A stretch of 20,891 nucleotides of DNA from the NCBI GenBank assembly GCA_913045895.1, contig CAJWSQ010000021.1, positions 1-20,891 of the forward strand, in the 5' to 3' direction. This document shows positions 1 to 17,294 of this stretch, in pieces (positions within the stretch are counted from its first letter, which is position 1; each line of letters begins with the position of its first letter). The stretch comes from an uncultured Flavobacteriales bacterium. Its GTDB lineage: Bacteria > Bacteroidota > Bacteroidia > Flavobacteriales_G > Salibacteraceae. Under the pieces are notes generated by a model. It had not been told where the DNA came from and did no database searches. It worked only from the letters and a program-made list of their open reading frames with translations. The translations under genes and the position numbers were made by a program.

Positions 1-2520
1 GCGCGATGCTTCTTCATAAGCAGATTTCAGTTTACTCTGGATATCATCTGACTTAACAGAATCGCCCATTTCTAGCAATTGCTTGGATAAATCGCGGACT
101 TTATCCACCATTAAGTCTGAAGCGTAATACGCGTTTATTTCCTGTACCGTTTTTAAGCTATTCAGTCTTTTTTGAATACCTGAAATAATACGCTCTGCAG
201 ATTGTTGCAGTGATAAACTCTTTTTATTTCTCGCTTCACTCAGATAGACTTTCTTTGATTCGAAAGCATTGTAAACCTCTTCTCGCTTCTCATTGATTTT
301 AGACAAGAAATTCTCAAACTCAGCAAAACGTCCTTCCAACTCTTCGAGCTGAACCATGAGCTTATTCAAATACTCATCGCATTTTTCAGGAGAATCACTG
401 ATATCCAAATAATTTGTCATCCCCTGGTTTACCAACTTCAATTGCGCATTGAACTCAGCCTCACCTTCTTTACCCATCAACTCTTTGCGCTTTTTCTTTA
501 ACGCGGCATTGATGCGGTTGAATTTGGAGTAAATACCAGAAATGGAATCGATAATTCGAGTGGTGTGAGTGGCATCTTCTATTTTGAGATTACTCACAAT
601 CTCAATGAGCATTTCCAATTCTTTGGAAACCTTGAGGATATCTTCTTCGAGCTTTTTAGCTTCTACAACTTTAGCCAACTGATCTACCGAAGCACTTAAT
701 TTCTCTACACGAACTTCGTAGGGCTGTAGCGCTTCTTTTTTCAGTAAAAACTTGACAGTTTGTTGCGAAACTTGCTCAGTAATCTCAATCAGTTGCTTTT
801 CGTATCCGTCTATTTTTTCGAGATCGGAATACCTTAAATCTTTGAGTGAAATGATTTCACCCCTAGCAGTTCTTAACCTTCCTAAACGATCAACAAAATC
901 TTGAATACTAGCCGATTCCCCTCGTTTTGCAAGCGATATAATTTCATCACTCTTTGCAAAAACCTCGTTCGATCTTTCCCTAGTATTCTTTTTAATTCGA
1001 ACAACCTTTTCGTATTCTTCAATTGCCGAAGAAGCTGCATTTTTAATCTCAGTTAAAGGCTGTTTAATCTGATACGCTTCTTCATGATTGAGCCAGTGAT
1101 AAGCATCAATAACATCAGTTGCAACCTTTACTAAATCGATATACAAATTGGCATAACTATCTTCTTTGTTAATCAACTTAATGAGCTCTTGGCACTCAGC
1201 CATAGCACGCACAACCTCTTTATTTCCGAGCTTGTATAAGTATGATTGATTCTCAACTTCAATAGTCTTGTTTGGAGAATAGAATGGCGTTTGCCAGATT
1301 TGAAGTACGTGATGCTTTTTTTGTTCCTCTTCACTTTTGAAGAACACCATTTCACCGTCATCAAAAATGGAATAACCATTACATATAATTGGCGTTGCTA
1401 CTTCTTGCTCAATGATGTTGTAAGAAAGTAAATTATACACCCCTGTTGCCGGCTGATAGAAAACATACATGAAATCTTCACCATTGGGAGATGGAATACG
1501 TTTCTCAAACAACATATTTTCTAACTGGATATCAAACAGCTTAACCTCACCAGTTTGAATGTAATATCCTTTCGCAAATATTATCCCTTGATCATCGGGC
1601 AATAAAACACAGCTATCCTCTAAAGCATCTATTCGAACAGCCTGTTGAATCTTTTCATTGTAAACGAAATAGCGGAATTGCTTTTCTTGATATGGCTTGA
1701 TTTTTAAGGCGATTAAATTCCCAATGATGGCAAAATAAATTTCTGCGTCATCAAGTGTTTGATCCGGATCCTCAACCTTTTCGCTGTAAATACCCTTTCC
1801 AGTATCTGTATTATCTTCAACCTTTATGGTTAGGTCGCCTTCAGTGGTTTCAACAAACACACGGTCTTGAATGGAAAAGTGTGGATGTTTTCCATTGCGC
1901 TGCATATCGCGCGTTACCTTTTGCCATTGAAACTCATGCTGATTTGGGAAACGAAACTCATGATCGCTGCGGTTATCCACATAAACCAACTCGCCATCAT
2001 TAATTGCCCACTTGAATGTTTTGATATCCTCGGTGGTTTTACCCACCTGAAAAACCATAAAAATGAACTGACCTATCTCGGCAAATTTGACAAATCGAGT
2101 TTCTCGGTAATACTTATATAGATTAGCAAAATCAGCAACAAAAGCTTCATTCTTCAAGAAAGAAGCCGTTATTTTCTGAAAAGTATTTGACTGATTGTCA
2201 TATGAGTAACAACTTATCACATCAGAAACCAGGGTTTCTGACTTAAGCCCCATATGCACATTATAGCCAAATAAAAATCGATTATTTCCAAGGGAAATAA
2301 TATCTCTAGCTAAGCAGTTATTCTCAGTAGTGATTCGTTCTGTTGAAACCAGTTTTGTTTCAATAGAACCAAAAACTTCTTTACGTGCTTCGTTGAGTTT
2401 ATTTAGTCGATTTCTAAGCTCTCCACCATGCTTTTGCAAACGCTCACGAATTATTTCATACGTGCCGCTTTCAAGAGAGATGTTGCTTGATTGCTCTGAT
2501 TGTTCTTGCTCCATTGACAT
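1..2520 (-). CDS. Large uncharacterised protein, 5' part (840 codons in window). ATG is at 2518-2520 and the 3' end lies beyond window position 1. It has an N-terminal globular region and a C-terminal heptad-rich coiled-coil region, and no P-loop was seen. It is the last gene of the pspA/flotillin cluster.
   Basis: On the reverse strand the frame ending at 2520 is open for the full 2520 nt with no stop, which is very unlikely by chance in AT-rich DNA. The translation begins MSMEQEQSEQSSNISLESGTYEIIRERLQKHGGELRNRL and continues ...VFYQPATGVYNLLSYNIIEQEVATPIICNGYSIFDDGEMVFF.... Its C-terminal half is rich in E, K and L with heptad character. It is absent from the supplied ORF track, presumably because no stop codon falls inside the window. 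No recognisable catalytic motif (no GxxxxGK[ST]). Confidence 0.65.
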   Translation of the reverse strand, partial: MSMEQEQSEQSSNISLESGTYEIIRERLQKHGGELRNRLNKLNEARKEVFGSIETKLVSTERITTENNCLARDIISLGNNRFLFGYNVHMGLKSETLVSDVISCYSYDNQSNTFQKITASFLKNEAFVADFANLYKYYRETRFVKFAEIGQFIFMVFQVGKTTEDIKTFKWAINDGELVYVDNRSDHEFRFPNQHEFQWQKVTRDMQRNGKHPHFSIQDRVFVETTEGDLTIKVEDNTDTGKGIYSEKVEDPDQTLDDAEIYFAIIGNLIALKIKPYQEKQFRYFVYNEKIQQAVRIDALEDSCVLLPDDQGIIFAKGYYIQTGEVKLFDIQLENMLFEKRIPSPNGEDFMYVFYQPATGVYNLLSYNIIEQEVATPIICNGYSIFDDGEMVFFKSEEEQKKHHVLQIWQTPFYSPNKTIEVENQSYLYKLGNKEVVRAMAECQELIKLINKEDSYANLYIDLVKVATDVIDAYHWLNHEEAYQIKQPLTEIKNAASSAIEEYEKVVRIKKNTRERSNEVFAKSDEIISLAKRGESASIQDFVDRLGRLRTARGEIISLKDLRYSDLEKIDGYEKQLIEITEQVSQQTVKFLLKKEALQPYEVRVEKLSASVDQLAKVVEAKKLEEDILKVSKELEMLIEIVSNLKIEDATHTTRIIDSISGIYSKFNRINAALKKKRKELMGKEGEAEFNAQLKLVNQGMTNYLDISDSPEKCDEYLNKLMVQLEELEGRFAEFENFLSKINEKREEVYNAFESKKVYLSEARNKKSLSLQQSAERIISGIQKRLNSLKTVQEINAYYASDLMVDKVRDLSKQLLEMGDSVKSDDIQSKLKSAYEEASR

Positions 2521-2619
2521 GTTAGATGGAATAAAATAATTGGACTCAAGTGAAGATCTGAGTCTGAAATAAGTGAGAAAGACTTTTTCAAGCCTTCCTC
2601 ACACAATGGAATTTATCAA

Positions 2620-4800
2620 TTATTCAGTGATTCCTAGATCACTTGGTTTTGCTCCTCCTAAACCAGCATTATTAGCTAGATATAGAATTTGTTGCAATAC
2701 ACTTTGTTTAGATGGGTCGTTGGTTTGAGTCATCATTTTCGACACCAAAGCCGCGATTGATAGATTCTTTAAATCTTCAGAATCAATCTTAGATTCAGCA
2801 AAAATTGAACGTAATTGATCTACCAACGTAGCTCCGTTCGGATCATCCAAAAGTTGGGTTTTAACCTTGGTAAAGATTTCGCTGTTATTTACAGTTCTAT
2901 CAAGAGTTTTACCAGTAGTAATTGCCCCAACAATTTTATCGAAGAATACAGATTCACCACCAACGATATCAATCTTAGCCGATTCAAGCGCACTTGATAA
3001 CACTTCTGCTTGAGCATCAGCAATTGATTTTTGGATGTTGATTTGAGCCAATTCAACTTCTTTCTCTTTCTCCAATCTAAGTTTAAATTCTTCGTGTTCT
3101 TTACCAACACCGTCCAGTTTCTTCATCGCTTCAGCTTTACGGTCGATACCTTCTGCCTCTGCATTGAATAACTCTCTGTTTACGTTAGCCTCTGCCAATC
3201 CTTTTTCTTTATCAGCTTCTGCTTTTCTCAGAATCACCTCAGCCTCTGCTAAACCTTTCGATTTTTCAACCTCTGCTCTAGCATTACCAATTCTCAATTC
3301 AGCTTCTGCTTCAGCATGAGATTTAGCCTCAATACCTTTAGCTTCTGCTAATGCCTGATCTTCAAGAACTGAAGCTTCAGCTTCCCCTTCTTTCTCTCTC
3401 GCTTCGGCTTTAGCCTGCATTACTTTAGCCTCAGCTAAACCAGATGCCGCAAATTTAGAAGCCTCGGCATCAGCCAATACTTTAATTGCTTCTGCACGTT
3501 GAATAGACGATTGCTGTTCAGCATCAGCATCAATAATTTTTTGTTTAGCCACAAATTCAGCAGCTTGTTTAGCAGCTTCTGCTTTTTTGATTTCTTGAAC
3601 CAATGCAGACTCTGCTTCTTGTTCAGCTTTAGTGAGAGCCACCTTCTTAGTACGATCGGCTTCAGCGTATGCTCGAGTATCTTTGATTCTTTCTTCTTCG
3701 TCAACTACAGTCTTTTCGATAGCAACACGTTCACGAATAACTTCTTGAATATTTTTCTTCTCAGTTTCAACAGATTTTTCTTTTTCAATCTGAGCCAGTG
3801 TAACTATTTTCTCACGCTCTGTAGCTTCAAGCGCTCTATCTTTTTCTACTCTTTCAGTTTCAATTGCTTCTGTACGCTCTTTATTTTTAGCAGCAACAAT
3901 AACCTGACGGAGCTTGTTCTCTTCAGCCACCATCACTTCTTCTTCAGTAGTAATGCGGGCTCTCTCAGATTTTAATCTTTCTTCTTGTTGCACTCGAAGA
4001 ATCTCTGCTCCTTCTCGAGCTTTTACGCTTTCAACCTCACGTCTTTGCTTTTCTTCACTTTCAGCCAATTGGCGCTCTAACTGCAAGATTGCTTCACGAG
4101 CCTCAACATCTTGTTGCTTGATTGTTTTTTCTTTATCACGCTGAATAAAGTTGGCTTTAACAGCCTCATTAGATGTGATTTCAGTAATTTTCTTGATACC
4201 TTCAGCATCTAAAATATTATTTGGATCAAGCGCACTTAAACGTGTTTGCTCTAAGAAATCGATTGCTGCATCATCCAACACATAACCGTTTAAGTCTGTA
4301 CCAATGATGTTGATGATTTCTTTTCTGAACTCATCCCTTTGATTGTATAAATCTACAAAGTCGAATTTCTTACCTACAGTTTTTAATGCTTCAGAAAACT
4401 TAGCATCAAACAACAATCTTAAAGACTCTTTGTCTGAAGCACGGCTACAACCTACCGATTGAGCCACTTTCTTAACATCTTCAACCATTTCATTTACACG
4501 AACAAAGAAGGCCACTTTAATATCAGCACGCATGTTGTCTTTACACACCAGGCCATCTTTACCTTCTCGTTCAATAGTTATGGTACTTAACGAGATATCC
4601 ATGATCTCTAAGCGGTGCAGTACCGGCACCACAATCATACCATTGAATGATACTTTAATACCACCAACTCCAGTACGAACCAAAGCTTGACCTTGAGACG
4701 CTTTGTGGTAAAAGCGGGCAACCATTGCCAGGATCCCAAGTACTAATACAACCCCAACAATAATGCTGGTGATCAGTGAATTTTGAAATAACGATTCCAT
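2620..4800 (-). CDS. Flotillin-like SPFH/band-7 family membrane protein (726 aa). It has an N-terminal transmembrane anchor, an SPFH domain and a ~400-aa Ala/Glu/Lys-rich coiled coil (EA-repeat region).
   Basis: The N-terminus (MESLFQNSLITSIIVGVVLVLGILAMVARFY) is a hydrophobic helix. It is followed by an SPFH-like core (GGIKVSFNGMIVVPVLHRLEIMDISL...DNMRADIKVAFFVRV...). A long AEAK/AEAE-rich coiled coil follows, as is typical of bacterial flotillins (YqiK/FloT-like). It lies next to an NfeD-like gene. Confidence 0.8.
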   Translation of the reverse strand: MESLFQNSLITSIIVGVVLVLGILAMVARFYHKASQGQALVRTGVGGIKVSFNGMIVVPVLHRLEIMDISLSTITIEREGKDGLVCKDNMRADIKVAFFVRVNEMVEDVKKVAQSVGCSRASDKESLRLLFDAKFSEALKTVGKKFDFVDLYNQRDEFRKEIINIIGTDLNGYVLDDAAIDFLEQTRLSALDPNNILDAEGIKKITEITSNEAVKANFIQRDKEKTIKQQDVEAREAILQLERQLAESEEKQRREVESVKAREGAEILRVQQEERLKSERARITTEEEVMVAEENKLRQVIVAAKNKERTEAIETERVEKDRALEATEREKIVTLAQIEKEKSVETEKKNIQEVIRERVAIEKTVVDEEERIKDTRAYAEADRTKKVALTKAEQEAESALVQEIKKAEAAKQAAEFVAKQKIIDADAEQQSSIQRAEAIKVLADAEASKFAASGLAEAKVMQAKAEAREKEGEAEASVLEDQALAEAKGIEAKSHAEAEAELRIGNARAEVEKSKGLAEAEVILRKAEADKEKGLAEANVNRELFNAEAEGIDRKAEAMKKLDGVGKEHEEFKLRLEKEKEVELAQINIQKSIADAQAEVLSSALESAKIDIVGGESVFFDKIVGAITTGKTLDRTVNNSEIFTKVKTQLLDDPNGATLVDQLRSIFAESKIDSEDLKNLSIAALVSKMMTQTNDPSKQSVLQQILYLANNAGLGGAKPSDLGITE

Positions 4801-4825
4801 TTTAGTTAGTTAATTGAGTATTTGA

Positions 4826-5488
4826 TTAATCAATCTGATTGTAGGGCTCTATCAAGTAAACTCCCTCTTCTTCAGAAAGCATTTGAATGAATAACACACG
4901 ATCTCCTTTAGACACTTTAACCCCTTCTCTCGTTTTAATATAAAACCTCAAAAAGGTTCCCATGTAATTAACCTCAGCCTGTCCCTTGCTAACATCATCA
5001 GCATGAAGAGTAACAACTCCCACTTTACCAATGATCTCTTTCTTTTTGCTGTCTTTATCAATATTCCCGAAGAACTTAACAAAAGGCCAAGTGAGAATTT
5101 TAGCTATAAACAAGCAAACAAAAAGTGTGGGTAAAAAAACAGCCAACCCGAGGAAGAAATTATGAATCCCTAAAACCCCATTGATATTGATTGTTATTAA
5201 CCAGAGCGGTATAACGAGAAAGCTCAACCAAATCATTAGCGGAACTTTTCCTAAGTTAAAGAATAGCAACACGTTGTTGATCCAGCTAACTCCAACAGAA
5301 GATGAGTTCACATCCATTTCTGCATCAGCATCAAGATCAATGTCTGCTTCGTAGTCTAAATCAAAATCTAAGAAATCTGTACCCAAAAAACCGAGTATCA
5401 CGATTACCCAATAAAATATGATAAAAACCAGCAAAGCTGTTGGAATTGCATTTGCCCAGTTAAATATGAAGTGTAGGAATTCAGTCAT
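4826..5488 (-). CDS. NfeD-like (YqiJ/YuaF-type) membrane protein. It has multiple transmembrane helices plus a C-terminal OB-fold beta domain and is the partner of the flotillin.
   Basis: The N-terminal two-thirds are hydrophobic helices with an acidic loop (DFDLDYEADIDLDADAEMD). The C-terminal soluble beta-rich segment is IIGKVGVVTLHADDVSKGQAEVNYMGTFLRFYIKTREGVKVSKGDRVLFIQM. It sits immediately upstream (25-bp gap) of the flotillin gene, which is the conserved NfeD-SPFH gene pair. Confidence 0.6.
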   Translation of the reverse strand: MTEFLHFIFNWANAIPTALLVFIIFYWVIVILGFLGTDFLDFDLDYEADIDLDADAEMDVNSSSVGVSWINNVLLFFNLGKVPLMIWLSFLVIPLWLITININGVLGIHNFFLGLAVFLPTLFVCLFIAKILTWPFVKFFGNIDKDSKKKEIIGKVGVVTLHADDVSKGQAEVNYMGTFLRFYIKTREGVKVSKGDRVLFIQMLSEEEGVYLIEPYNQID

Positions 5489-5496
5489 TGTTTTTA

Positions 5497-6228
5497 TTAT
5501 TCCGCATTACCTCCTTCAGGAGTAATACCTAATTTTTTCTTTAGTTCAGCTAATTCATCACCAGCTTTACTCGCACTTGCTCCTTCAAGAGCTTTGTTGA
5601 TTTCATCATCAACAGATCTACTTTCATTAGCAATCTCTCCGTAACTCTCAGCCAAAGCCTCTTCTTGAGCTACTTTTTCTTTCATGCGCTCCAACATTGA
5701 AACAGTACTTGATGAATCAATTTGAGCCATTTGTTTATTGATATTCTTTGTAGCCGAACTCACTTTTACGCGAGCTTTAAGCGTACGAAGCTCATTTTCA
5801 TATTGGCTAATTTGAGATCTCAATCGTTTGATATTTCCATCCATATTTTCAATAGACTCATCAAACTTCACTTTTTCAGATTTAGATCTTTCTAAGTGTT
5901 TCAAGTTTTCCTCTTTCTTAACCAAAGCTTCACTTGCTAAACGATCAGCTTCTTCAGCACTCAACTCACCTTTTTGAGCTTGTTGTAACAAAAGAATTGC
6001 TTTCTGTTCGTAATCTTTTGACTTATCCTCAAACAATTCAATATCATTTCTAGCTCTAATGCTCAGCGCCTTTACTTCGGCTAAAGCATGTAAGGCTTTG
6101 TCTAAATCTTCTTTCAAATCACGGATTCCTTGTTCCGTCATTTTTATAGGATCTTCTAACTTATCGACAGCAGAATTCGCTTCTGCCTTACCTATAGTAA
6201 ATAGTCTTCTTAGAATATTCATAATCAT
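5497..6228 (-). CDS. pspA: PspA/IM30 (phage shock protein A / Vipp1 / LiaH) family protein, 243 aa.
   Basis: The N-terminus (MIMNILRRLFTIGKAEANSAVDKLEDPIKMTEQGIRDLKEDL) matches the canonical PspA start (MGIFSRF...NALLDKAEDPeKM...). It is entirely coiled-coil and about 240 aa. Neighbours are 5-8 bp away, indicating an operon. Confidence 0.85.
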   Translation of the reverse strand: MIMNILRRLFTIGKAEANSAVDKLEDPIKMTEQGIRDLKEDLDKALHALAEVKALSIRARNDIELFEDKSKDYEQKAILLLQQAQKGELSAEEADRLASEALVKKEENLKHLERSKSEKVKFDESIENMDGNIKRLRSQISQYENELRTLKARVKVSSATKNINKQMAQIDSSSTVSMLERMKEKVAQEEALAESYGEIANESRSVDDEINKALEGASASKAGDELAELKKKLGITPEGGNAE

Positions 6229-6233
6229 AGATA

Positions 6234-6629
6234 TTAGTATTTTGAAAATGTGATTAGTTCGTCAGAGTACTCACTCAGTAATAGACTCAATGAATTGATT
6301 GAACCTTCCAATTCATTTTGATCTAAATTTTCTAACTGTAACGTGTCTCTAAATATGACTTTCTTACCCGTTTCATCAAGAGCAAATGCTCCATGTACGA
6401 TGTCACGATTTTTTATCAGGAGGTTTTTAAAAACATCATTGTTTCCTTCTTTCAACTCAAATAGAAATTGCTCCATGATTAGTATTGGCGAGGCACAAAC
6501 CACCACCAGATTTCGTATCCCTACAGACTCATCTTCAACTACAAATACTCCTTCGGATGCATCTTGATGCGAGATATTATACTCTAGGTCTAATAAAAAG
6601 GATTTTACCTTTTCAAAATGATCACTCAT
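6234..6629 (-). CDS. YbjN-like small cytoplasmic protein (putative sensory-transduction regulator / T3SS-chaperone-like fold), 131 aa. It is the first gene of the operon.
   Basis: A 131-aa acidic protein with alternating beta and helix pattern (GVFVVEDESVGIRNLVVVCASPILIMEQFLFELKE...). It lies directly upstream of pspA with a 5-bp gap. YbjN-family genes commonly partner PspA. The assignment is by composition and context only. Confidence 0.35.
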   Translation of the reverse strand: MSDHFEKVKSFLLDLEYNISHQDASEGVFVVEDESVGIRNLVVVCASPILIMEQFLFELKEGNNDVFKNLLIKNRDIVHGAFALDETGKKVIFRDTLQLENLDQNELEGSINSLSLLLSEYSDELITFSKY

Positions 6630-6679
6630 TATGCTTTAAGTTTATGGTTAATAATTACGTAGATTGTGGACTAAGTAAC

Positions 6680-6692
6680 AGCTTACAATATA
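6680..6692. promoter_or_regulatory. First copy of the 13-bp direct repeat AGCTTACAATATA (the second copy is at 6767-6779). It lies in the divergent intergenic region between the ybjN-pspA operon and the XRE-S24 gene and is a candidate operator.
   Basis: Exact 13/13 identity between 6680-6692 and 6767-6779, with the two copies' start positions 87 bp apart (74 bp between them). Confidence 0.4.
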
Positions 6693-6762
6693 GCACTTTT
6701 AGTTAGTGAGGGGAGAACACATTTTCCTTTCTTCTTTTTGCATGTTTGACAATTTAATTAGC

Positions 6763-6797
6763 TTTGAGCTTACAATATACTAAATATTTTAGTTTTG
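6763..6797 (+). promoter_or_regulatory. Candidate Bacteroidetes sigma-A promoter for the XRE-S24 gene. TTTG (-33) is at 6763-6766 and TAGTTTTG (-7, matching TAnnTTTG) at 6790-6797. The 13-bp element AGCTTACAATATA (6767-6779) lies exactly between them, where an operator would sit.
   Basis: There is an exact TAnnTTTG match 30 bp upstream of the ATG at 6828. A TTTG lies 23 nt upstream of it. The repeat element occupies the spacer. Confidence 0.45.
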
Positions 6798-6827
6798 CTA
6801 ATATTATTAGTAATTATTTTTTGAGAA

Positions 6828-7601
6828 ATGTCAAAAATCGGAAATAACATACGCAAGATAAGAAGCGTCAAAAACCTTAATCAGAGCGACTTTGCCGACT
6901 TATTCGAACTAAAAAGAGCAAGTATTGGAGCTTATGAAGAAGGTAGAGCTGAACCAAAAATCAACACGGTTATTGAAATAGCTAATTATTTTGGCATAAG
7001 CACAGATGATTTGCTTACAAAAGAGCTTTCCGTTAATGATTTATATCGGTTTGACATATTCAGGGAAGATTTAGCTAACGACACCAAACACAACCTGACT
7101 CCCTCTACTGTACCTGTTGACTTAGTACAGATTCCATATATATCAACCAATATTCGGAAGCAGTATTTAAAAGAAAGAAAACTCTCTGAAGTTAAGGATC
7201 AGATCACACTACCTATGAATAAGGGATTCAATTACATTGCTATTGAAATCACAGACAACTCCATGTTTTATAATGAATCAGGAATAAACACCAATGATAT
7301 ATTAATAGGTATTAAACCTGAAAAGCTATCTCCTTCAAATGTTCAAGTTGGTAAGGTTTACATTTTTGAAACAGATCAAGACATCCTCATTCGAGAGGTA
7401 AATCAGAAGAACTTATCATCTCTTGAACTCACACCTTTCAACCCCAATTACTATGCAACCTCTATTCCAGCGAAAGAAATAAAAGCCATTTGGCAACTAG
7501 AAAAGCTAATATCTAATAATATTAGCAATAGATCGGATTTAACGAAACAATTAGAAAACCTTGAGAGCGAAATCAGATTACTAAAACGTAACCTACAGTA
7601 A
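6828..7601 (+). CDS. XRE-family helix-turn-helix plus C-terminal S24 (LexA/CI-type) peptidase domain repressor, 257 aa, with an extra C-terminal coiled-coil tail.
   Basis: The N-terminal HTH_3 signature is IRKIRSVKNLNQSDFADLFELKRASIGAYEEGRAEPKINTVIEIANYFGISTDDLL. The S24 signature is IEITDNSMFYNESGINTNDILIGI (compare LexA GDSM...GI..GD, with the Ser nucleophile in DNSM), followed by a basic K in IREVNQKN. The heptad-like tail is KQLENLESEIRLLKRNLQ. Confidence 0.75.
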   Translation: MSKIGNNIRKIRSVKNLNQSDFADLFELKRASIGAYEEGRAEPKINTVIEIANYFGISTDDLLTKELSVNDLYRFDIFREDLANDTKHNLTPSTVPVDLVQIPYISTNIRKQYLKERKLSEVKDQITLPMNKGFNYIAIEITDNSMFYNESGINTNDILIGIKPEKLSPSNVQVGKVYIFETDQDILIREVNQKNLSSLELTPFNPNYYATSIPAKEIKAIWQLEKLISNNISNRSDLTKQLENLESEIRLLKRNLQ

Positions 7602-7603
7602 AT

Positions 7604-8296
7604 ATGGCTGATAAAATTAGTAGCCTTGTAAATGAGATAAATTCCTACTTATCAGACCGAGTATTATCTCGTCAAGAAAAAAGAGATTTAAAATCTATCA
7701 TTCAATCTATCTCATTGAATGAACATGATAAAACAGTTTTCTTATCAAAAGTTAGAGATTTACTTTTTGAAAATAAGTGGAACGCTTCGAGTGAACAACA
7801 AATTGAATGGTTCTATGAAATCTCTAAGTTGATTATAGCTACAGAAACAAATACTAACGAACACAACTCAAGTGCACGATTTAGCCCAGGAACTTCGTGT
7901 AGAGAAGCCATTTGTAATGCTATTCGATTCGCTAACAAAACCATAAGAATATGTGTTTTCACAATTAGTGATGATGATATCACAGAAGAAATAATCCGTG
8001 CACACAGATTGGGTAAAGACGTTAAAATAATAACTGACAACGATAAATCTTTTGATTTAGGATCTGACATTGAAGAAATGGAAAGAGCAGGCATTCCTGT
8101 AACTATGGATAATACTAGCGCTCACATGCATCATAAATTTGCGCTATTTGATAACAAAAAGTTGATTACAGGAAGTTACAACTGGACAAGATCGGCAGCA
8201 TCTCACAACCATGAAAATATAATTCTTACTCAAGACAAAACATTGGTTGAGGCGTTCATCCACGAGTTTAACACACTATGGAAAGAGTTGAATTAA
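7604..8296 (+). CDS. Phospholipase D-family single-HKD-domain protein (Nuc-like endonuclease/PLD nuclease superfamily), 230 aa, with a ~90-aa N-terminal extension of unknown function.
   Basis: A perfect HKD motif, HMHHKFALFDNKKLITGSYNWT (HxKxxxxD-x6-GSxN). The upstream beta-alpha segment (RICVFTISDDDITEEIIRAHRLGKDVKIITD) is typical of PLDc_2. Its start lies 3 bp after the stop of the XRE-S24 gene, indicating translational coupling. Confidence 0.8.
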   Translation: MADKISSLVNEINSYLSDRVLSRQEKRDLKSIIQSISLNEHDKTVFLSKVRDLLFENKWNASSEQQIEWFYEISKLIIATETNTNEHNSSARFSPGTSCREAICNAIRFANKTIRICVFTISDDDITEEIIRAHRLGKDVKIITDNDKSFDLGSDIEEMERAGIPVTMDNTSAHMHHKFALFDNKKLITGSYNWTRSAASHNHENIILTQDKTLVEAFIHEFNTLWKELN

Positions 8297-8347: not shown

Positions 8348-10420
8348 ATGAAGTTTTTATTGAATACCCTATGCTTTTTACTCTGCATACAGCTTTGCTA
8401 TGCTCAACAAGATTTTTCTGATAAAACATACTTTCTAATTGATTCACTCAACCATTTTGAACTCAGTGGAGATGACAGCATACTTGTATTATCTAAAATA
8501 GAAAGCTATCACCAAGCAACTGAAGACACAAATAGACTCGCCATATTAGTAGAACTGGTAGAAGAATGCTGGAACGATGATGTATGGCCTCGGTATAATT
8601 CAGTGGTTTTATCGCAGGCAACGGATGCTTTAAATAAGATTGATAACCAAAAACTCCGCAACAAATACTTGCATTATCAGGGTGTAGCCTACGCCAATCA
8701 AGGTTACTTACACGATATTCAAAGTGATTTTGATATTGCTGAACAACACTATCTAAAAGCCTTAAAAGCATTTGAAGAAAGTGATGACGAGAAAGGCCAA
8801 GGCAAAATGCTTTACGCTATTGCACTCATTAATGAGGAACGAGGACGGGTACAAGTAGCCATTGATTATTTCAACAAATCACTCCGCCTAGCTGAGGCAA
8901 GTGGCGACTCCACTGGTTTGACTCATTTGTCTATGAGTTTGGGAGATATCCACTCAAGCTTGAGCAATAAAGAGGAAGCAATGGATCACTACAAACGTGC
9001 TTTACAGTTAGCTAAAGGCACTGGTGATAAACGCCTTGAAGGGTTTGCATCTACCACTTTAGCAACCATGTATTTATATCAGGAAGATTATGAACAAGCT
9101 CGCGAATTGAGTCTAAAAGGCATTCAACTTTTAGATGAAGCAAAAGCAGGAGCTGACAAAATAAACGGGTTGGATGTATTGGGTAGAATAGCTGCAAAAC
9201 AAGGTCAACTTGATTCTGCCGAGATGTACTTTACCGAAATCATTAGGTTGGCTGAAAATGCTAATCGACCACAAGATTTAGTACAAGGACTTTACTCACT
9301 TGCTCAAAATGATCTGAAGCGAGGTGATTTTACTAAAGCTGAAAAAAATGCAAAGGAAGCTTATCGTATCACTAAAGAGTTGGACTTAAAATATAAACTG
9401 AGCGATGCCGCTGGTTTACTGGCAGAGATTTACACGCAAACCAATAAGTATAAAGAAGCCAATAAATACTTGTTGGAGTTTAATAATCTGAAAGATACAC
9501 TCCGCAATGAAAACCTTAAAAACCAAGCTTTAAAGCAATCTATAGAATACGAGTACGAAAAACAAAAAGCTGTTGATGAAGCTGAGCATGAAGCCCAATT
9601 AGCAATTGCCGCTGCACGTGAATCCAGACAAAACATCATCATTTGGGCTGTTGCTGCAATCTTAGTTTTAATCAGCATTGCATTGGTGTTGAATTTCTTC
9701 CGTTTACGTACCATTCGAAAACAAAAAGAAGAACTGGATGAAGCATATCATCAACTGGAACTGAGTAAAAACGATAAAATTCTAGCCTCGAACTTGAAGG
9801 CACTTCAGGCGCAGATGAATCCACACTTTATTTTCAATGCGCTGAATTCCATCCAAACATTGGTGTTGCATGGAGACGTAGATAGCTCTTACGATTACAT
9901 CAACAAATTTGCGATGTTAATCAGAGAAACGCTCAATGCTTCTGAGCAAGAATTTATTCCGATTGAAAAAGAGATTGAATCGCTTGAAACGTATTTGAAT
10001 TTAGAAAAGCTAAGATTCAGAGAAGATTTCAATTATCAAATAAAAGCTCCAAATGAAGTTCCAGATAAGTACATCCCTCCTATGCTAATTCAACCGTTTA
10101 TTGAAAATGCACTGAAACATGGCCTTTTCCACAAAGAAACCGATCGTGAGCTGGATGTAAAAATCACTATTTCAGATACACTTACTTGTGTGATTGAAGA
10201 CAACGGAATTGGTAGAAAAGCATCTAAAAAAATCAATCAAAGTAGAAGTGCTAGTCACAAATCATATGCTATTAGCTCTATTAAAAAGCGCTTGGAAATG
10301 ATGCAAGAAAAACTCAAAACAACCATCGGTGTGAATTACGAAGATTTGGAAGAAAATGGCCAAGCTGTTGGAACAAGAGTCACCATCAGAATTCCAATTT
10401 ATGACCGTTCCTCAAATTAA
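8348..10420 (+). CDS. Sensor histidine kinase, LytS/YehU type (His_kinase plus HATPase), with signal peptide, large periplasmic TPR-repeat sensor domain and a single transmembrane helix. 690 aa.
   Basis: Signal peptide MKFLLNTLCFLLCIQLCYAQQ. TPR-like repeats (AIALINEERGRVQVAIDYFNKSLRLAE..., AMDHYKRALQLAK...). Transmembrane helix IIIWAVAAILVLISIALVLNFF. The His_kinase (PF06580-type) motif LKALQAQMNPHFIFNALNSIQ carries the phospho-accepting His. The ATPase-region motifs are PPMLIQPFIENALKHG and IEDNGIG. Confidence 0.85.
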   Translation: MKFLLNTLCFLLCIQLCYAQQDFSDKTYFLIDSLNHFELSGDDSILVLSKIESYHQATEDTNRLAILVELVEECWNDDVWPRYNSVVLSQATDALNKIDNQKLRNKYLHYQGVAYANQGYLHDIQSDFDIAEQHYLKALKAFEESDDEKGQGKMLYAIALINEERGRVQVAIDYFNKSLRLAEASGDSTGLTHLSMSLGDIHSSLSNKEEAMDHYKRALQLAKGTGDKRLEGFASTTLATMYLYQEDYEQARELSLKGIQLLDEAKAGADKINGLDVLGRIAAKQGQLDSAEMYFTEIIRLAENANRPQDLVQGLYSLAQNDLKRGDFTKAEKNAKEAYRITKELDLKYKLSDAAGLLAEIYTQTNKYKEANKYLLEFNNLKDTLRNENLKNQALKQSIEYEYEKQKAVDEAEHEAQLAIAAARESRQNIIIWAVAAILVLISIALVLNFFRLRTIRKQKEELDEAYHQLELSKNDKILASNLKALQAQMNPHFIFNALNSIQTLVLHGDVDSSYDYINKFAMLIRETLNASEQEFIPIEKEIESLETYLNLEKLRFREDFNYQIKAPNEVPDKYIPPMLIQPFIENALKHGLFHKETDRELDVKITISDTLTCVIEDNGIGRKASKKINQSRSASHKSYAISSIKKRLEMMQEKLKTTIGVNYEDLEENGQAVGTRVTIRIPIYDRSSN
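9540..10420 (+). repeat. About 0.88-kb direct repeat (copy 1), which pairs with 11690-12570 (copy 2). It encodes the TM helix plus the entire transmitter half of the two kinases. Nucleotide identity is about 85-90% by eye.
   Basis: The proteins are colinear and almost identical from KQSIEYEYEKQ.. to ..RVTIRIPIYD. The DNA aligns with scattered synonymous changes. Confidence 0.8.
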
Positions 10421-10496
10421 TTGTACGCTGTGTCAAGTAAAATTGAGTAATCGCCTCCTTCCTCTACTTTCGCCCGCATTAAAGCATTGCCAATTC

Positions 10497-12587
10497 ATGA
10501 AGTATCTCTTTAGCATTCTGTGTTTCCTGCTTAGCCTACAATTTTCCTTCGCGCAAAAAGATTTTTCAGACAAAGCCTACTTCTTGGTTGATTCGTTGAA
10601 TTTCATTGAGCTTTCAAAAAACGATTCTCTACTCATTCTTGAAACGGCAAAAAACTACCATGCAGCCAAGCACGATACCACCAAGCTCCAAATCCTTGAA
10701 AATCTGGTGGATGAATGCTGGAATGATGATGTTTGGCCGCGCTACAATCTGTTTATGCGAAATGAAGCCAAAAGACTGATTTCAACCGTTGATTCAGGAA
10801 GCGATGAATGGCGCAGGTATTTGTATTTTCTGGGAAGTGGAACCGGAGGAATCGGCTTCCAATTTGATGTAATTGGTCAAACAGATTCGGCCACTCATTA
10901 CTACCACGAAGCACTGGAGTATTTTATTAAAGGGAATCATACTGAAGGTGAAAGCCTTATTTACGATGCTCTTGCCATGATATATGAATTGAAGGGAGAC
11001 ATGCGTAAGGCGCTTGAATTCTATAACAAGGCTCTACAATTGGCAGAAAAAAATCACGACTCAATCGCAATAGCTAATGCAGCGGTTAGCTTGGGAGATT
11101 TACATGGTGAATTGAAGAATTATCAGCTGAGCCGAGAACTATACTTAGAAGCTATTGAAGCTGCACATGCTACCAATCAAAAACGTGTTGAAGGATTCAC
11201 TTACACCTCATTAGCAACCGACTATGTCGACAGAAATAAAACTGACAGCGCAAAAATCCTGACTAAGATCGGATTGAAAATCTTGGAAGATTCCGGAAAC
11301 GAAAATACCATGAGTAATGGATTTAACATGCTCGGAAATATTGCGCTTTTTGAAAAAAAACTTGACACCGCTCGATACTATTTCAATGAAATGGATCGGA
11401 TTGCCATAGCCAATCATCAGCCCGAGGATATGATTATAGCTCAGAGTAATCTTTACAGAGTTGAAAGAGCTTCTGGGAATTACGCGAAAGCTAAAATCCA
11501 CGCTCTAAACGGATATCGGGTAGCTAAGGCCAACGATTTCCCTGGCCTATTGAGCAGAACTTCTAAAGATTTGGCTCAAATTTACGCCCAACAAAACCAA
11601 AGCGATTCCGCCTATAAATATTTATTGGAATACTCCATTTTGAGTGATAGCATAGTAAACACCGAGCTTAAAAATGAAGCGATCAAACAATCGATAGAAT
11701 ACGAATACGAAAAACAACAGGCAATTGATGAGGCTGAACACGAAGCCGAAATGGCTATTGCTGCTGCACGTGAATCTAGGCAAAACATTATCATTTGGGC
11801 AGTTGCCGCAATCTTAGTTTTAATCAGCATTGCATTGGTGATGAATTTCTTCCGTTTACGCACCATTCGAAAACAAAAAGAAGCGTTAGATGAAGCATAT
11901 CATCAACTGGAATTGAGTAAAAACGATAAGATTCTTGCATCGAATTTAAAGGCACTTCAGGCACAAATGAATCCGCATTTTATTTTCAATGCGTTAAATT
12001 CCATCCAAACATTGGTGTTGCATGGAGATGTAGATAGCTCTTACGATTACATCAATAAATTCGCGATGTTGATCAGAGAAACGCTCAATGCTTCTGAACA
12101 AGAATTTATTCCGATAGAAAAAGAAATTGAATCACTTCAAACGTATTTGAAATTAGAGAAGCTTCGGTTTAGAGATGACTTCAATTATGAGATCAACACG
12201 CCAGATCGCATTCCAAACAAGTACATCCCTCCTATGCTGATTCAGCCATTTATTGAAAACGCACTGAAACATGGTCTTTTCCACAAAGAAACCGATCGTG
12301 AGTTGGATGTAAAAATCACTATTTCAGATACACTTATTTGTGTGATTGAAGATAACGGAATTGGTAGAGAAGCATCTAAAAAAATCAATCAAAGTCGCAA
12401 TGCAGATCACAAATCATACGCCATTGGCTCAATTAAAAAGCGATTGGAAATGATGCAAGAAAAACTCAAAACAACCATCGGTGTGAATTACGAAGACTTG
12501 GAAGAAAATGGTACCGCAGTCGGAACACGAGTTACCATTAGAATTCCGATTTACGACAGTTCGTCAAATAAAACCAACGCTGCGTAA
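10497..12587 (+). CDS. Paralogous TPR-sensor histidine kinase (LytS/His_kinase type), 696 aa. The C-terminal ~295 aa are near-identical to the upstream kinase, and the TPR sensor domain is divergent.
   Basis: The ORF-track entry 10356..12587 overlaps the upstream gene. The in-frame ATG at 10497 gives the start MKYLFSILCFLLSLQFSFAQKDFSDKAYFLVDSLN, homologous to the HK1 start MKFLL...YAQQDFSDKTYFLIDSLN. It has the same TM helix, H-box (MNPHFIFNALNSIQ) and ATPase motifs. Confidence 0.85.
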   Translation: MKYLFSILCFLLSLQFSFAQKDFSDKAYFLVDSLNFIELSKNDSLLILETAKNYHAAKHDTTKLQILENLVDECWNDDVWPRYNLFMRNEAKRLISTVDSGSDEWRRYLYFLGSGTGGIGFQFDVIGQTDSATHYYHEALEYFIKGNHTEGESLIYDALAMIYELKGDMRKALEFYNKALQLAEKNHDSIAIANAAVSLGDLHGELKNYQLSRELYLEAIEAAHATNQKRVEGFTYTSLATDYVDRNKTDSAKILTKIGLKILEDSGNENTMSNGFNMLGNIALFEKKLDTARYYFNEMDRIAIANHQPEDMIIAQSNLYRVERASGNYAKAKIHALNGYRVAKANDFPGLLSRTSKDLAQIYAQQNQSDSAYKYLLEYSILSDSIVNTELKNEAIKQSIEYEYEKQQAIDEAEHEAEMAIAAARESRQNIIIWAVAAILVLISIALVMNFFRLRTIRKQKEALDEAYHQLELSKNDKILASNLKALQAQMNPHFIFNALNSIQTLVLHGDVDSSYDYINKFAMLIRETLNASEQEFIPIEKEIESLQTYLKLEKLRFRDDFNYEINTPDRIPNKYIPPMLIQPFIENALKHGLFHKETDRELDVKITISDTLICVIEDNGIGREASKKINQSRNADHKSYAIGSIKKRLEMMQEKLKTTIGVNYEDLEENGTAVGTRVTIRIPIYDSSSNKTNAA

Positions 12588-12622
12588 AGTAAATTTGCAC
12601 AACCAGTTACTAGTAATTTGAT

Positions 12623-13363
12623 TTGAACTCCATGAATAAAATACGCGCAATAATAGTTGATGATGAAGCCAGTGCACGCGAAAACTTGGCACTACTCATT
12701 AATCGATTCTGCCCCAATATTGAGGTGCTTTCATCATTCAATTTATTGAAAAAGGCGGTTGATTATTTACAAAATAACGAGGTTGATGTAGTTTTTTTGG
12801 ATGTTGAAATGCCCGAACATGCTGGTTATGAAATCGTGGACTTTTTTGATGAAATCAATTTCGATATCGTGTTTTGTACAGCTTACGATAAGTACGCCAT
12901 CAAGGCATTTGAAATCTCTGCAATTGATTATTTACTGAAACCAGTAGACATCACACGTTTAAAACAGGCCGCTGAGAAACTTCAGGAGAAACAACTTTTC
13001 AGAATCACCCAAGAACAAGTCAATCAAATAAATAGCTCGTTTAGAAACACCATAAAAGTAATGGATCGTGGTGAGCGTGTTCTGCTAAACAAAACAGATA
13101 TTATTGCTATTGAAGGTCAATCTGCTTACAGTAAAATTTACACCCTCGATAAAAACTACACCGCCAGTAAAAACATTGCGCAACTGGAAGAAGAATTGGT
13201 GAATGATTCGTTTTTCTACCGCAGTCAAAAATCGTGGATTGTAAACCTCAACTACATTGACAAAGTCAATAAAACCGATAAAATAATCCATCTCCAACAA
13301 GGTATTGATGCTAAAGTATCGCGCCAAAAGTCAAAAGAATTTTACGAGTTAATCAACTTGTAA
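12623..13363 (+). CDS. LytTR-family response regulator (REC receiver plus LytTR DNA-binding domain), 246 aa.
   Basis: REC signature: KIRAIIVDDEASARENLALLI...VDVVFLDVEMPEHAGYEIV...IVFCTAYDKYAIKAFEISAIDYLLKP. LytTR signature: VLLNKTDIIAIEGQSAYSKIYT...ELVNDSFFYRSQKSWIVNLNYIDKV. It lies 35 bp after the second kinase. Confidence 0.9.
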   Translation: MNSMNKIRAIIVDDEASARENLALLINRFCPNIEVLSSFNLLKKAVDYLQNNEVDVVFLDVEMPEHAGYEIVDFFDEINFDIVFCTAYDKYAIKAFEISAIDYLLKPVDITRLKQAAEKLQEKQLFRITQEQVNQINSSFRNTIKVMDRGERVLLNKTDIIAIEGQSAYSKIYTLDKNYTASKNIAQLEEELVNDSFFYRSQKSWIVNLNYIDKVNKTDKIIHLQQGIDAKVSRQKSKEFYELINL

Positions 13364-13399: not shown

Positions 13400-13469
13400 G
13401 CTATTTTTCTTCGATTGAAAGGGACTCTAGGTTTGCTTGATCTTATTCAAACAAACAACATACCTTATC

Positions 13470-15002
13470 ATGAAAAGAATTTTACTCAGCCTGGCTTTAG
13501 CAAGTAGCAGTTTATTGAGCATTCAAGCACAATCAACCATTTACGTAAACGATGATGCTACTGGAAACAACGATGGATCTTCTTGGGCAAACGCATACAA
13601 CGATTTAAACGAAGCGTTGACGAACAGCTCTACAAATGATGAAATCTGGATTGCAGAAGGATTTTATACCAGAACATCTTCTACCGAAACTTTTAGAGTT
13701 GATAACGATGTTAGAATTTACGGTGGTTTTAGCGGAAATGAAACGGACAAAGACCAACGAAACATAAAAGCAAATCCTACGGTTGTTAGTGGAGATGTAA
13801 GTTGGAACGACCAAGGTATTGTTAGCAGTTCAAACAGCTATATGCAAGACAATGCCGAGCACGTATTTGAAGTACATAGCACCAACAGAGCCGTTTTTGA
13901 TGGACTTATTATTGAACACGCTTTTAGTACAACAGCAGCAGGTGGTGGAATTTATGTGTACTCTCAATCGATGAACAATTTGGAAATTTCAAACTGTATT
14001 ATCAGAGAGAATGTGTCTGCCAACAGAGCCGGAGTTCTTTTCTATTCAGAAGTTCCAGCGGCATTTTTGATGTACAACAACATTATTGAAAAGAATGTGA
14101 ATGCAGATTTCAACTCTGCTTATACCGTTGAATACAGAATTACTGGAAACAGCCACGTTTATTCAGAAGTACACATGGTGAACAACCTGTTTAACGACAA
14201 CATTACAGAAGCATTTGGTATGGGTGGAACTTGCGGAAGGTTTACCATCACACCTGGAGGTTGCGAGATAGACATTTTCCTAATCAATAACACTTTCATC
14301 AATAATGCTCAAGGCAGCAACATACCTGGCTTATTCGCTTATGAGTCTCATGGAGCTTCAAGCTACTTCTACCCTCACATCAGCAACAATATCTTCTACA
14401 ACAATTATGAAGCAACAGACATCTTTAGAGTTTCAAATGGAAGTGCTAATACATTAGTTATCTTCCCAGAAGATTCTCATAACAATATTCAAGATTTTCC
14501 TGATCTACAAGGGTTAACCAATACGCAAATCATTAACGCTACGCCTTTTGTAGATTTTGTAAATGGAGATTACAGACCAATTGCAGCTTACGAAACTGGT
14601 GGAAATCCAGCCATGTACAGCAATTCAAATTTGATAGATGTATTTGCCGATCAAATGTATCCAGAGTTAGATTTAGCAGGAAATCCAAGATTTAATACTC
14701 AAGGAGAAATAGCTATTGGAGCTAGTCAGGCAGGTCCAAATACTTTGAGTGTAGATGATTTGAAAGAAACTGCCAATTTGAGCATCTTCCCCAATCCAGC
14801 TGACAACATCATTACCATAAAACATGAGTTAACTGGTAACTTAGACATTTCGATTTACACGTTAACTGGAGCTCAGGTTTCTAACACCGTTCTTTCTGAT
14901 AATTTAAACACGATTGATGTTTCTAATTTACCAACTGGCTACTACATTTTGAAAGCTAAATCAGGCAATCAAGAACACGTAGAAAAACTCATTATAAAAT
15001 AA
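13470..15002 (+). CDS. Secreted T9SS cargo protein (510 aa from the ATG). It has a signal peptide, a conserved N-terminal beta-helix-family motif, a parallel beta-helix-like repeat region and a Por-secretion-system C-terminal sorting domain. Paralog 1 of 3.
   Basis: The ORF track starts at a TTG (13437). The ATG at 13470 gives MKRILLSLALASSSLLSIQAQ, a typical signal peptide. The motif IYVNDDATGNNDGSSWANAYNDLNEAL...IWIAEGFYT...YGGFSGNET is shared with the next two genes. The C-terminal domain is FPNPADNIITIKHEL...GYYILKAKSGNQEHVEKLIIK. Confidence 0.8.
   Translation: MKRILLSLALASSSLLSIQAQSTIYVNDDATGNNDGSSWANAYNDLNEALTNSSTNDEIWIAEGFYTRTSSTETFRVDNDVRIYGGFSGNETDKDQRNIKANPTVVSGDVSWNDQGIVSSSNSYMQDNAEHVFEVHSTNRAVFDGLIIEHAFSTTAAGGGIYVYSQSMNNLEISNCIIRENVSANRAGVLFYSEVPAAFLMYNNIIEKNVNADFNSAYTVEYRITGNSHVYSEVHMVNNLFNDNITEAFGMGGTCGRFTITPGGCEIDIFLINNTFINNAQGSNIPGLFAYESHGASSYFYPHISNNIFYNNYEATDIFRVSNGSANTLVIFPEDSHNNIQDFPDLQGLTNTQIINATPFVDFVNGDYRPIAAYETGGNPAMYSNSNLIDVFADQMYPELDLAGNPRFNTQGEIAIGASQAGPNTLSVDDLKETANLSIFPNPADNIITIKHELTGNLDISIYTLTGAQVSNTVLSDNLNTIDVSNLPTGYYILKAKSGNQEHVEKLIIK
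14781..14999 (+). repeat. About 220-bp T9SS C-terminal-domain-coding repeat, copy 1 of 4. The other copies are at 16880-17098, 18948-19166 and 20568-20786.
   Basis: The four 73-aa C-terminal domains are over 75% identical. The DNA of copies 3 and 4 is the most similar. Confidence 0.7.
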
Positions 15003-15030
15003 CATCTAAACGATTCATGTTTGAATAATC

Positions 15031-15070
15031 AAAGGCTCGGTATCTCTTGATATTGGATCTTTGTGTTTTT
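15031..15070 (+). terminator. Degenerate rho-independent terminator-like hairpin plus T-tract after paralog 1 (AGGCTCGGTATC..GATATTGGATCTTTGTGTTTTT).
   Basis: An imperfect stem with several G-U pairs followed by TTTGTGTTTTT. It is homologous to the cleaner terminators after paralogs 2 and 3. Confidence 0.4.
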
Positions 15071-15079
15071 ATAAAATGT

Positions 15080-15111
15080 ACTTCCTCAAATAAAAATTGC
15101 ACTTCCTCAAA
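15080..15111 (+). promoter_or_regulatory. Second instance of the ACTTCCTCAAA direct-repeat pair (cores 15080-15090 and 15101-15111, 21 bp apart), with a TACGTTTG -7 box at 15140-15147.
   Basis: It has the same 21-bp periodicity and the same position relative to the TAnnTTTG box as at 13367-13399. Confidence 0.55.
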
Positions 15112-15196
15112 GTTATTTCTTTAAGCGTTTTTGAGCCGCTACGTTTGCGGCATCTTATTCAAACAAACAACATTAATTCAAATGAAACACAGAGCT

Positions 15197-17101: not shown

Positions 17102-17133
17102 CCCACAAACTATTTATGTTTGAATAATCAGAG

Positions 17134-17170
17134 GCTCGATACTGAAAAGTATCGGGCTTTTGTGTTTTGT
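17134..17170 (+). terminator. Rho-independent terminator: GCTCGATACT-gaaa-AGTATCGGGC followed by TTTTGTGTTTTG.
   Basis: A 10-bp stem (one G-U pair), a 4-nt loop and a T-rich tract immediately after the stop codon of paralog 2. Confidence 0.65.
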
Positions 17171-17178
17171 AGAAATGC

Positions 17179-17210: not shown

Positions 17211-17294
17211 GCTATTTCGCAGCGCGTGTTTGAGCCTCTACGTTTGCGCCATCTTATTCAAACAAACAACATTAACACTAAGAAAAAAAGGAAC

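Follow-up and report, generated by a model that had tools for sequence, protein, structure and literature searches.

In an uncultured marine Flavobacteriales bacterium (assembly GCA_913045895.1, contig CAJWSQ010000021.1), a row of five minus-strand genes ends in a large open reading frame (ORF) that follows a giant flotillin gene and has no stop codon before the first base of the contig. What does this large ORF encode, and why does it stand behind genes for PspA, an NfeD-like protein and a flotillin? We addressed these questions in the stretch of 20,891 nucleotides (nt) that contains the operon (hereafter, the window). An original prediction, made from the letters of the window, had proposed the large protein, which it could not assign to a known family, as a scaffold or partner of the flotillin/PspA machinery and had tied it to the flotillin. 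The tie to the flotillin is real, whereas the protein turns out to be an enzyme of a known family. Indeed, as judged from its orthologs, the ORF is the N-terminal, non-catalytic half of an AAA+ ATPase of about 1630 amino acids (aa), and the region as a whole is probably one instance of a conserved envelope-maintenance operon accompanied by a divergent repressor and a gene of the phospholipase D (PLD) family.

The large ORF belongs to a family of AAA+ ATPases

The large protein had been read as having no recognisable motif, which is incorrect. The 840-aa fragment matches Pfam DUF3686 over residues 34–475 (E = 1e-189, 631 bits) and DUF7902 over residues 596–680 (E = 8e-29, 100 bits), and this order at the N-terminus is that of the Pfam-defined family DUF3686 + DUF7902 + AAA, known as "DNA repair ATPase". 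More than 480 homologs, 51–67% identical across all 840 residues, were found in the protein database in many phyla, most of them labelled "DNA repair ATPase" or "AAA family ATPase" (GenBank/NCBI). The nearest relative of the gene is found in the Flavobacteriales metagenome-assembled genome UBA6049 (79% amino-acid identity), and the nearest full-length ortholog (locus L001, 79% identical) has 1633 aa with its AAA domain at residues 1276–1399.

The full-length orthologs (n = 72) measure 1611–1906 aa and carry a single AAA+ module near residue 1280, matched by Pfam AAA/AAA_5. This module is the most conserved part of the protein, with a mean column identity of 82% across phyla. Walker A (SPPGYGKTT), Walker B (DDIQH) and the motif AGNPYTE are conserved in at least 98% of these 72 orthologs, and the motif IPDMLxNRxD largely so; the sensor motifs are among those conserved. 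Nothing was found in favour of a passive scaffold, and the orthologs carry the AAA+ ATPase core. The truncation of the ORF is an assembly end: a search for the exact flotillin sequence, made to extend the ORF, retrieved a TARA Oceans contig that encodes the identical protein but breaks off close to where the window does, so that the AAA+ part has to be read from the orthologs.

An AlphaFold2 model of the 840 residues (20 homologs) reached a mean predicted local distance difference test (pLDDT) score of 85.9 and consists, in order, of a long helix (residues 18–50), a beta-propeller and an all-helical region. Models of the helical region are likewise all-helical, with a pLDDT of about 85, and they picture the C-terminal half, previously taken for a long coiled coil, as a rod of antiparallel helical bundles instead of a simple coiled coil. 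Foldseek searches against the PDB gave no functional clue for either half. The propeller half retrieved generic propellers only (Elp1, WD40, prolyl oligopeptidase, CyRPA), and the helical half showed a weak likeness to spectrin, the alpha-actinin rod and the dynein tail, none at E ≤ 1e-3. A PDB sequence search with the 840-aa fragment returned nothing useful, and a literature search on DUF3686 found no paper. The ATPase family was absent from the 2.9 million viral contigs of IMG/VR, and a phage or prophage origin was rejected for want of any relative there.

Conservation of the flotillin-ATPase linkage

Conservation of the large gene next to flotillin had been set beforehand as the result on which the proposed link would stand or fall, and the outcome was strongly positive. 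A scan of one genome per species yielded at least 599 tblastn-confirmed ATPase loci, the best 80 of which were examined by searching their six-frame ORFs with the window proteins; since these 80 are the ones most similar to the query, more distant family members may differ. A flotillin gene is found directly upstream of the ATPase gene, on the same strand, in 64 of the 66 loci with at least 3 kb of upstream sequence, and an NfeD-like gene is also present in 61 of the 66. The linked loci belong to at least six phyla (Bacteroidota, Planctomycetota, Verrucomicrobiota, Desulfobacterota, Kiritimatiellota and Omnitrophota). The gap between flotillin and ATPase has a median of 171 nt, is no longer than 200 nt in 36/69 loci and can be as short as 0–30 nt. 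Given the number of adjacent loci, their spread over at least six phyla and these short gaps, the adjacency is not a coincidence, and the link drawn originally between the large gene and the flotillin is borne out.

Between phyla, the flotillin is about 50% identical, the ATPase about 53% and the NfeD-like protein about 28%; the similar rates at which flotillin and ATPase diverge would be expected from co-evolving partners. The pair formed by the CesT-like gene and pspA, together with the divergent gene for a helix-turn-helix (HTH)/S24-like protein, has a narrower distribution, being found in 29 of the 59 loci with at least 6 kb upstream, all from Bacteroidota.

We also looked for a conserved sixth gene between flotillin and ATPase. 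This candidate was rejected, the inserts found in about 30 loci being mutually unrelated. In Hymenobacter, a small insert at the junction (L020 and L021, both 9521–9943; L024, 9341–9898; L038, 9373–9912) is, judging by eye, similar to DUF559/endonuclease-type genes. Unrelated small inserts occupy the same junction in other lineages, and the spacer seems to tolerate insertions.

In the window itself, the spacer contains two stem-loops on the minus strand. The first, retrieved by a terminator-like scan, has a 13-bp stem (2602..2573) followed by TTATTT, and confirms the hairpin originally noticed downstream of flotillin as real; the second has a 7-bp stem (2564..2543) followed by CAATTATTTT. The whole spacer folds with −30.6 kcal/mol (z = −5.28). 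Stable hairpins of unrelated sequence, with poor U tracts, also stand directly past the flotillin stop in L001, L004, L005 and L074, and the spacer measures just 9–29 nt in L013, L034 and L066. The spacer hairpins are candidates for a partial terminator or attenuator, or for an mRNA-stabilising element. Most likely, the hairpin past the flotillin gene would lower read-through and so leave the scaffold in excess over the enzyme.

The other proteins of the operon

The coordinates of the features are collected in Table 1. The ORF analysis of the window confirms the layout first described, five consecutive minus-strand genes separated by 5, 8, 25 and 99 bp, and the identity and homology of the operon components can be regarded as nearly certain.

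Table 1. Location of the operon, its regulatory region and the divergent genes in the window.
Feature	Position	Strand	Size or remark
CesT/Tir-like chaperone (YbjN clan), operon gene 1	6629..6234	minus	131 aa
PspA/IM30, bacterial ESCRT-III superfamily	6228..5497	minus	243 aa
YqiJ/YuaF-type (NfeD2-like) membrane protein	5488..4826	minus	220 aa
Giant YqiK-type flotillin	4800..2620	minus	726 aa
Flotillin-ATPase spacer, two stem-loops	2521..2619	minus	99 nt
N-terminal part of AAA+ ATPase (DUF3686/DUF7902)	1..2520	minus	ATG at 2520 to base 1, 840 codons, no stop
ATPase beta-propeller domain	1291..2355	minus	residues 56-410, AlphaFold2 model
ATPase helical rod	1..1242	minus	residues 427-840; DUF7902 within, at nt 481-735
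Divergent regulatory region	6630..6827	none	198 bp, palindromes and direct repeat
XRE-type HTH regulator with degenerate S24 (LexA/CI-like) domain and C-terminal helix	6828..7601	plus	
Single-HKD phospholipase D-superfamily protein (Nuc/NucT/DrmC-like)	7604..8296	plus	starts 2 nt past regulator gene

The first gene had been called YbjN-like, which is right at the clan level: its product passes the YbjN model (E = 1.3e-5, 25.9 bits against a cut-off of 22) and matches CesT_Tir_1 (PF22550) over 130 of 131 profile positions (E = 8.4e-57, 191 bits). Both this profile and the position of the gene, 5 nt upstream of pspA, are those of the PspA-linked CesT/Tir-like chaperones. The second protein is a PspA family member, its residues 4–232 aligning to positions 1–217 of the 220 in PspA_IM30 (PF04012; E = 2.2e-40, 139 bits against a cut-off of 33.9), and is 56–80% identical to its orthologs in other Bacteroidota.

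The NfeD-like protein has an N-terminal transmembrane (TM) segment, an acidic, D-rich linker, further TM segments and a small C-terminal beta domain. A profile of 20 orthologs aligned to Escherichia coli YqiJ with hhalign (96%, E = 4e-9, 180 columns) and marginally to 2K14, the solved NfeD-type soluble domain of Bacillus subtilis YuaF (E = 0.015). Pfam YqiJ_N was matched by 11 and Pfam NfeD by 2 of these 20 orthologs, the window protein falling below the YqiJ_N cut-off (E = 0.004, 17.8 against 23 bits). Therefore, the protein is likely homologous to the YqiJ/YuaF subgroup, with the window sequence taken by itself under the curated thresholds.

The flotillin is composed of a TM segment, an SPFH/Band-7 domain, a coiled coil of about 330 aa rich in E, A and K, and a C-terminal globular tail. 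At full length it has no Pfam match, presumably because of the compositional bias of the coiled coil; residues 1–249 scanned alone match Band_7 over residues 33–236 (E = 3e-12, 47.4 bits against a cut-off of 23.6). The profile of its orthologs aligned to E. coli YqiK with a probability of 99.9% (hhalign, E = 1e-32, 34% identity, 218 columns), and a YqiJ-like gene is located 25 nt upstream, as is typical of YqiK/FloT-type (SPFH2) proteins. The Pfam Flotillin domain was matched neither by the coiled-coil and C-terminal parts of this protein nor by three orthologs, and PDB searches with the sequence (phmmer) and the profile retrieved no solved flotillin; both absences are probably due to sequence composition, possibly through low-complexity filtering. 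By these comparisons, the protein is a flotillin of the YqiK type whose coiled coil is expanded; such "giant SPFH2" (giant SPFH2b) proteins were already described by Hinderhofer et al. (2009; PMC2636767). The labels PspA, NfeD-like and flotillin are thus upheld by PspA_IM30 and by the YqiJ and YqiK profile comparisons, and the functional trio first proposed for these three genes holds as a YqiJK-type module.

Relationship to described systems

The operon type is already known from the comparative genomics of Ravi et al. (2024; mSystems 9:e00847-23, PMC11237479), who described it with Dokdonia donghaensis ANH61663.1 as prototype and whose supplementary table includes the divergent "cHTH+Protease" gene. 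Their operon, composed of CesT/Tir-PspA, Band-7/flotillin, YqiJ/YuaF and a beta-propeller/coiled-coil AAA+ ATPase, has the same genes in the same order, the divergent cHTH+protease-like regulator and the optional PLD (HKD) gene, reported in some operons, and they likewise found the abbreviated version, NfeD-flotillin-(ATPase), to be more widely distributed. There is no essential difference between the two, the window being an ortholog in another Flavobacteriales genome. ATP-dependent membrane remodelling and chaperone-like assembly were suggested as the function (PMC11237479). The window itself adds nothing categorically new, as the association is already published; what our analysis contributes is the link to DUF3686/DUF7902, the quantified conservation, the dead S24 dyad, the candidate operators and the inter-cistronic hairpin.

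The E. coli YqiJ-YqiK and B. subtilis YuaF-FloT pairs (NfeD2 + SPFH2) consist of homologous genes, arranged in the order of the window and closely spaced. YqiK has 553 aa against the 726 aa of the window flotillin, the difference being the expanded coiled coil, and, unlike the window, the yqiJK locus has no adjoining PspA, CesT or AAA+ gene. In the B. subtilis pspA-ydjGHI operon, PspA is likewise co-encoded with an SPFH protein, which recruits it to the membrane (PMC8581546). Nevertheless, this SPFH protein, YdjI, is soluble and not a flotillin; YdjG and YdjH (zinc-ribbon and TPM domains) are absent from the window operon, and the B. subtilis operon in turn has neither an AAA+ ATPase nor a CesT-like protein.

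A further likeness, to ESCRT-III/Vps4 (archaeal CdvB-CdvC) and to HflK/C-FtsH, is one of analogy only: a polymer-forming membrane scaffold is encoded with an AAA+ ATPase. In contrast to Vps4 and FtsH, the ATPase of the window family has no detected MIT or protease domain, and its single AAA+ module is located behind a propeller and a helical region of about 800 aa, so that homology amounts to the generic AAA P-loop. Of the two marks of Vps4-type ESCRT-III disassemblases, an MIT domain binding ESCRT-III tails was not detected by Pfam or by Foldseek of the helical half, and the AAA similarity is generic instead of pointing to the Vps4 clade.

Possible role of the ATPase

The likeliest role, to which we assign a probability of roughly 0.4, is ATP-driven remodelling of the flotillin/NfeD assembly, of PspA polymers, or of both. 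NfeD and flotillin would build a membrane-anchored SPFH assembly, and the CesT-like chaperone would keep PspA soluble or assembly-competent. PspA, once recruited to the SPFH assembly, would seal or stabilise damaged membrane, and the AAA+ ATPase, attached by its propeller and rod to one of these polymers, would spend ATP to remodel, extract or recycle subunits. Two machines offer a model for such a step: Vps4 remodels ESCRT-III with ATP, and FtsH works inside HflK/C cages. Slightly more tentatively, the NfeD-flotillin-ATPase triad could work on its own as an ATP-driven machine for the assembly, disassembly or recycling of flotillin cages and also, in Bacteroidota, of PspA polymers.

Both the function of bacterial flotillins and the disassembly of PspA/ESCRT-III-like polymers in bacteria are unsettled, and a flotillin-adjoining ATPase with an exceptionally conserved AAA+ core is an obvious candidate for the missing energy-consuming component. 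If the triad is such a machine, it would be a bacterial counterpart of Vps4/ESCRT-III or of FtsH in HflK/C, built on a propeller/rod AAA+ ATPase without a characterised homolog and conserved across at least six phyla at more than 50% identity, in no fewer than 599 species-level genomes. It would then provide the first enzymatic handle on bacterial flotillin dynamics, and would bear on the remodelling of PspA-type polymers where there is no Vps4. The system can be tested in several cultured carriers, among them Dokdonia donghaensis DSW-1, Aquimarina latercula DSM 2041, Zunongwangia pacifica and Hymenobacter.

Several observations weigh against ATP-driven remodelling of these polymers. The AAA+ module lies beyond the window and is known from orthologs 51–79% identical to the fragment. 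The solved proteins closest to it in sequence, p97/Cdc48/VAT/NSF/Rix7, are AAA ATPases that remodel proteins and as such speak for the proposed role, but the alignments are limited to the P-loop segment, which makes the clade assignment soft. Neither Pfam nor Foldseek detected an MIT-like or other known ESCRT-III-binding module in the rod. As the triad has no PspA gene beside it in phyla other than Bacteroidota, the substrate of the ATPase need not be PspA. The spacer stem-loops could halt most transcription before the ATPase gene, and two loci depart from the conserved arrangement: L031, with the ATPase alone, and L056, with a disrupted ATPase and no flotillin. Finally, no experimental paper on any operon member or on the ATPase family was found in the literature.

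A close rival, which we consider unlikely, assigns the ATPase to quality control: instead of acting on the scaffold, it would unfold or extract client membrane proteins corralled in a flotillin microdomain, and PspA would only patch the membrane. Precedents for this mode of action are FtsH within HflK/C cages and, together with prohibitin, the m-AAA protease. The nearest solved AAA relatives are indeed substrate-threading unfoldases, the propeller and rod could serve as platforms for clients or adaptors, and the triad lacks PspA in most phyla; nevertheless, neither the ATPase nor any conserved neighbour has a protease domain, the NfeD partner is of the protease-less YqiJ type and, unlike in FtsH, no TM segment was noted in the ATPase when its sequence was read by eye. 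The pairing of SPFH and AAA+ proteins, as in HflK/C-FtsH, is in any case an established theme (PMC2636767).

Distinctly less probable is a defence system, triggered by phage or stress, with a PLD nuclease and membrane-acting effectors under the control of a phage-repressor-like HTH/S24 regulator. The regulator resembles CI/LexA and the CapH or control-protein HTH models, and the PLD protein matches the DrmC, DpdK and Mokosh PLD models and recurs with the cluster in different arrangements; it is found, however, in just 11 of the 80 loci. PADLOC 2.0 gave no specific match for the five operon proteins or for a full-length ATPase ortholog, its hits being weak coiled-coil matches of PspA (LmuB, E = 0.0016; JetC, E = 0.0045) and weak generic AAA matches of the ATPase ortholog (mad8, E = 2.5e-4; IetA). 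Membrane-protective defence does have a precedent in dynamin-like systems. Nevertheless, defence genes are typically patchy and fast-evolving, whereas the triad is more than 50% identical between phyla with stable synteny; moreover, the family is absent from the IMG/VR viral contigs, and the neighbours in the window are two-component and type IX secretion system (T9SS) genes instead of defence genes.

Weaker still, and very improbable, is the reading of the large protein as a DNA-repair ATPase transcribed on its own past a terminator and next to the flotillin operon by accident, for which Pfam's wording for DUF3686 ("ATPase involved in DNA repair"), the GenBank name, a weak RuvB_N match and the terminator-like hairpin in the 99-nt spacer can be cited, against which stand the lack of any detected nuclease, helicase or DNA-binding domain, a RuvB similarity confined to the P-loop and outscored by p97-type matches, the adjacency to flotillin in 64/66 loci of at least six phyla with gaps down to 0–30 nt, and a neighbourhood in which no repair genes recur. 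The name "DNA repair ATPase" thus appears to be a legacy annotation, supported by neither domain content nor gene context, and is probably misleading.

Divergent regulator, candidate operators and PLD gene

The regulator gene is divergent from the CesT-like gene in all 29 loci that have the CesT-PspA pair, and its product matches HTH_19 (E = 2.6e-12) and Peptidase_S24 (E = 7.5e-8). We aligned it to E. coli LexA and lambda CI. In this alignment, Arg takes the place of the catalytic Lys in the window protein and the majority of orthologs, and no sequence has Lys there; the catalytic Ser is kept by the window protein but replaced by Ala or Glu in most of its orthologs. The Ser-Lys dyad of the self-cleaving repressors LexA, CI and UmuD is therefore absent, and the domain appears to be a pseudo-protease by this alignment. 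As the dyad is degenerate, LexA-style self-cleavage is unlikely, and an SOS/LexA-type induction of the operon was rejected on the same ground. The regulator is a probable repressor of the operon, and since it is unlikely to cleave itself, a signal other than RecA-stimulated cleavage would relieve the repression. Behind the S24 domain, we observed a conserved C-terminal helix (RLxxLE).

Two perfect palindromes of the form CTAAW-N3-WTTAG, at 6780–6792 and 6798–6810, are candidate operators in the divergent region; the window has three copies of this pattern, where chance would give 0.18. Orthologous regions have palindromes at the same position, with lineage-specific sequences (GCTAA...TTAGC in Flavobacteriales, GCTCAAA...TTTGAGC in Hymenobacter), a change that would be expected from an operator co-evolving with its HTH protein. 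The palindromes are located just upstream of a TATATTG box, which they slightly overlap. This box is part of the direct repeat TATATTGTAAGC, found on the minus strand at 6779..6768 and 6692..6681, the second copy being 87 nt nearer the CesT-like gene. The consensus of the Bacteroidota −7 element is TAnnTTTG; the TATATTG box resembles it, and the presence of two such boxes suggests tandem promoters. A third perfect palindrome, CTAATAATATTAG at 7513–7525, falls within the regulator gene at its 3' end, about 80 nt before the PLD start, and through it the PLD gene may be controlled separately.

Bracketed by the copies of TATATTGTAAGC there is a C-rich element, CTCCCCTCAC (6700–6730), and relatives keep a similar element, CCACCTCC, as DNA but in no reading frame. 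A leader peptide in the 5' region was also considered and rejected, as the short ORFs of the window and L001 keep the DNA and not the frame.

The PLD protein matches PLDc_2 (E = 8e-31, 107 bits) as well as the NucT and DrmC models, and its translation contains the motif HKFALFD, in agreement with the HxK(x)4D signature. Its homologs are found in three arrangements: in 8 Bacteroidota the gene adjoins the HTH gene, in 2 Pirellulaceae it immediately precedes NfeD, and in L061 it follows the ATPase gene.

Neighbouring genes

In several Flavobacteriales and Cytophagales relatives, a conserved polyamine-type gene block follows 3' of the ATPase on the same strand (L002, 15012–19241; L004, 14928–19024; L007, 15025–19137; L027, 7084–10886; L034, 15482–19022). 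The block encodes a protein of about 185 aa, a lipoprotein, a multi-TM protein and a 7TM-spermidine-synthase-like protein, to which a small AdoMet-decarboxylase-like protein is added in L002, L004 and L034; this annotation is a reading of the sequences by eye together with the operon class of Ravi et al. These loci seem to join into one the two PspA operon classes that Ravi et al. described. The closest relative, L001, does not have the block, and the window ends before the position where it would lie.

Downstream of the PLD gene, window positions 8348–13363 encode tandem paralogous kinases of TPR + LytS-type histidine kinase architecture (61% identical), followed by a LytTR response regulator. 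The two kinase ORFs overlap by 65 nt as listed, and the second probably begins at a later ATG, for example at 10497. Next come four consecutive genes for proteins with T9SS C-terminal sorting domains (13437–20789), three of which are paralogous over their full length (33–48% identity); the sorting domains are 66–85% identical. The four T9SS domains mark the genome as one of Bacteroidota. These genes may form a regulon of the adjoining two-component system.

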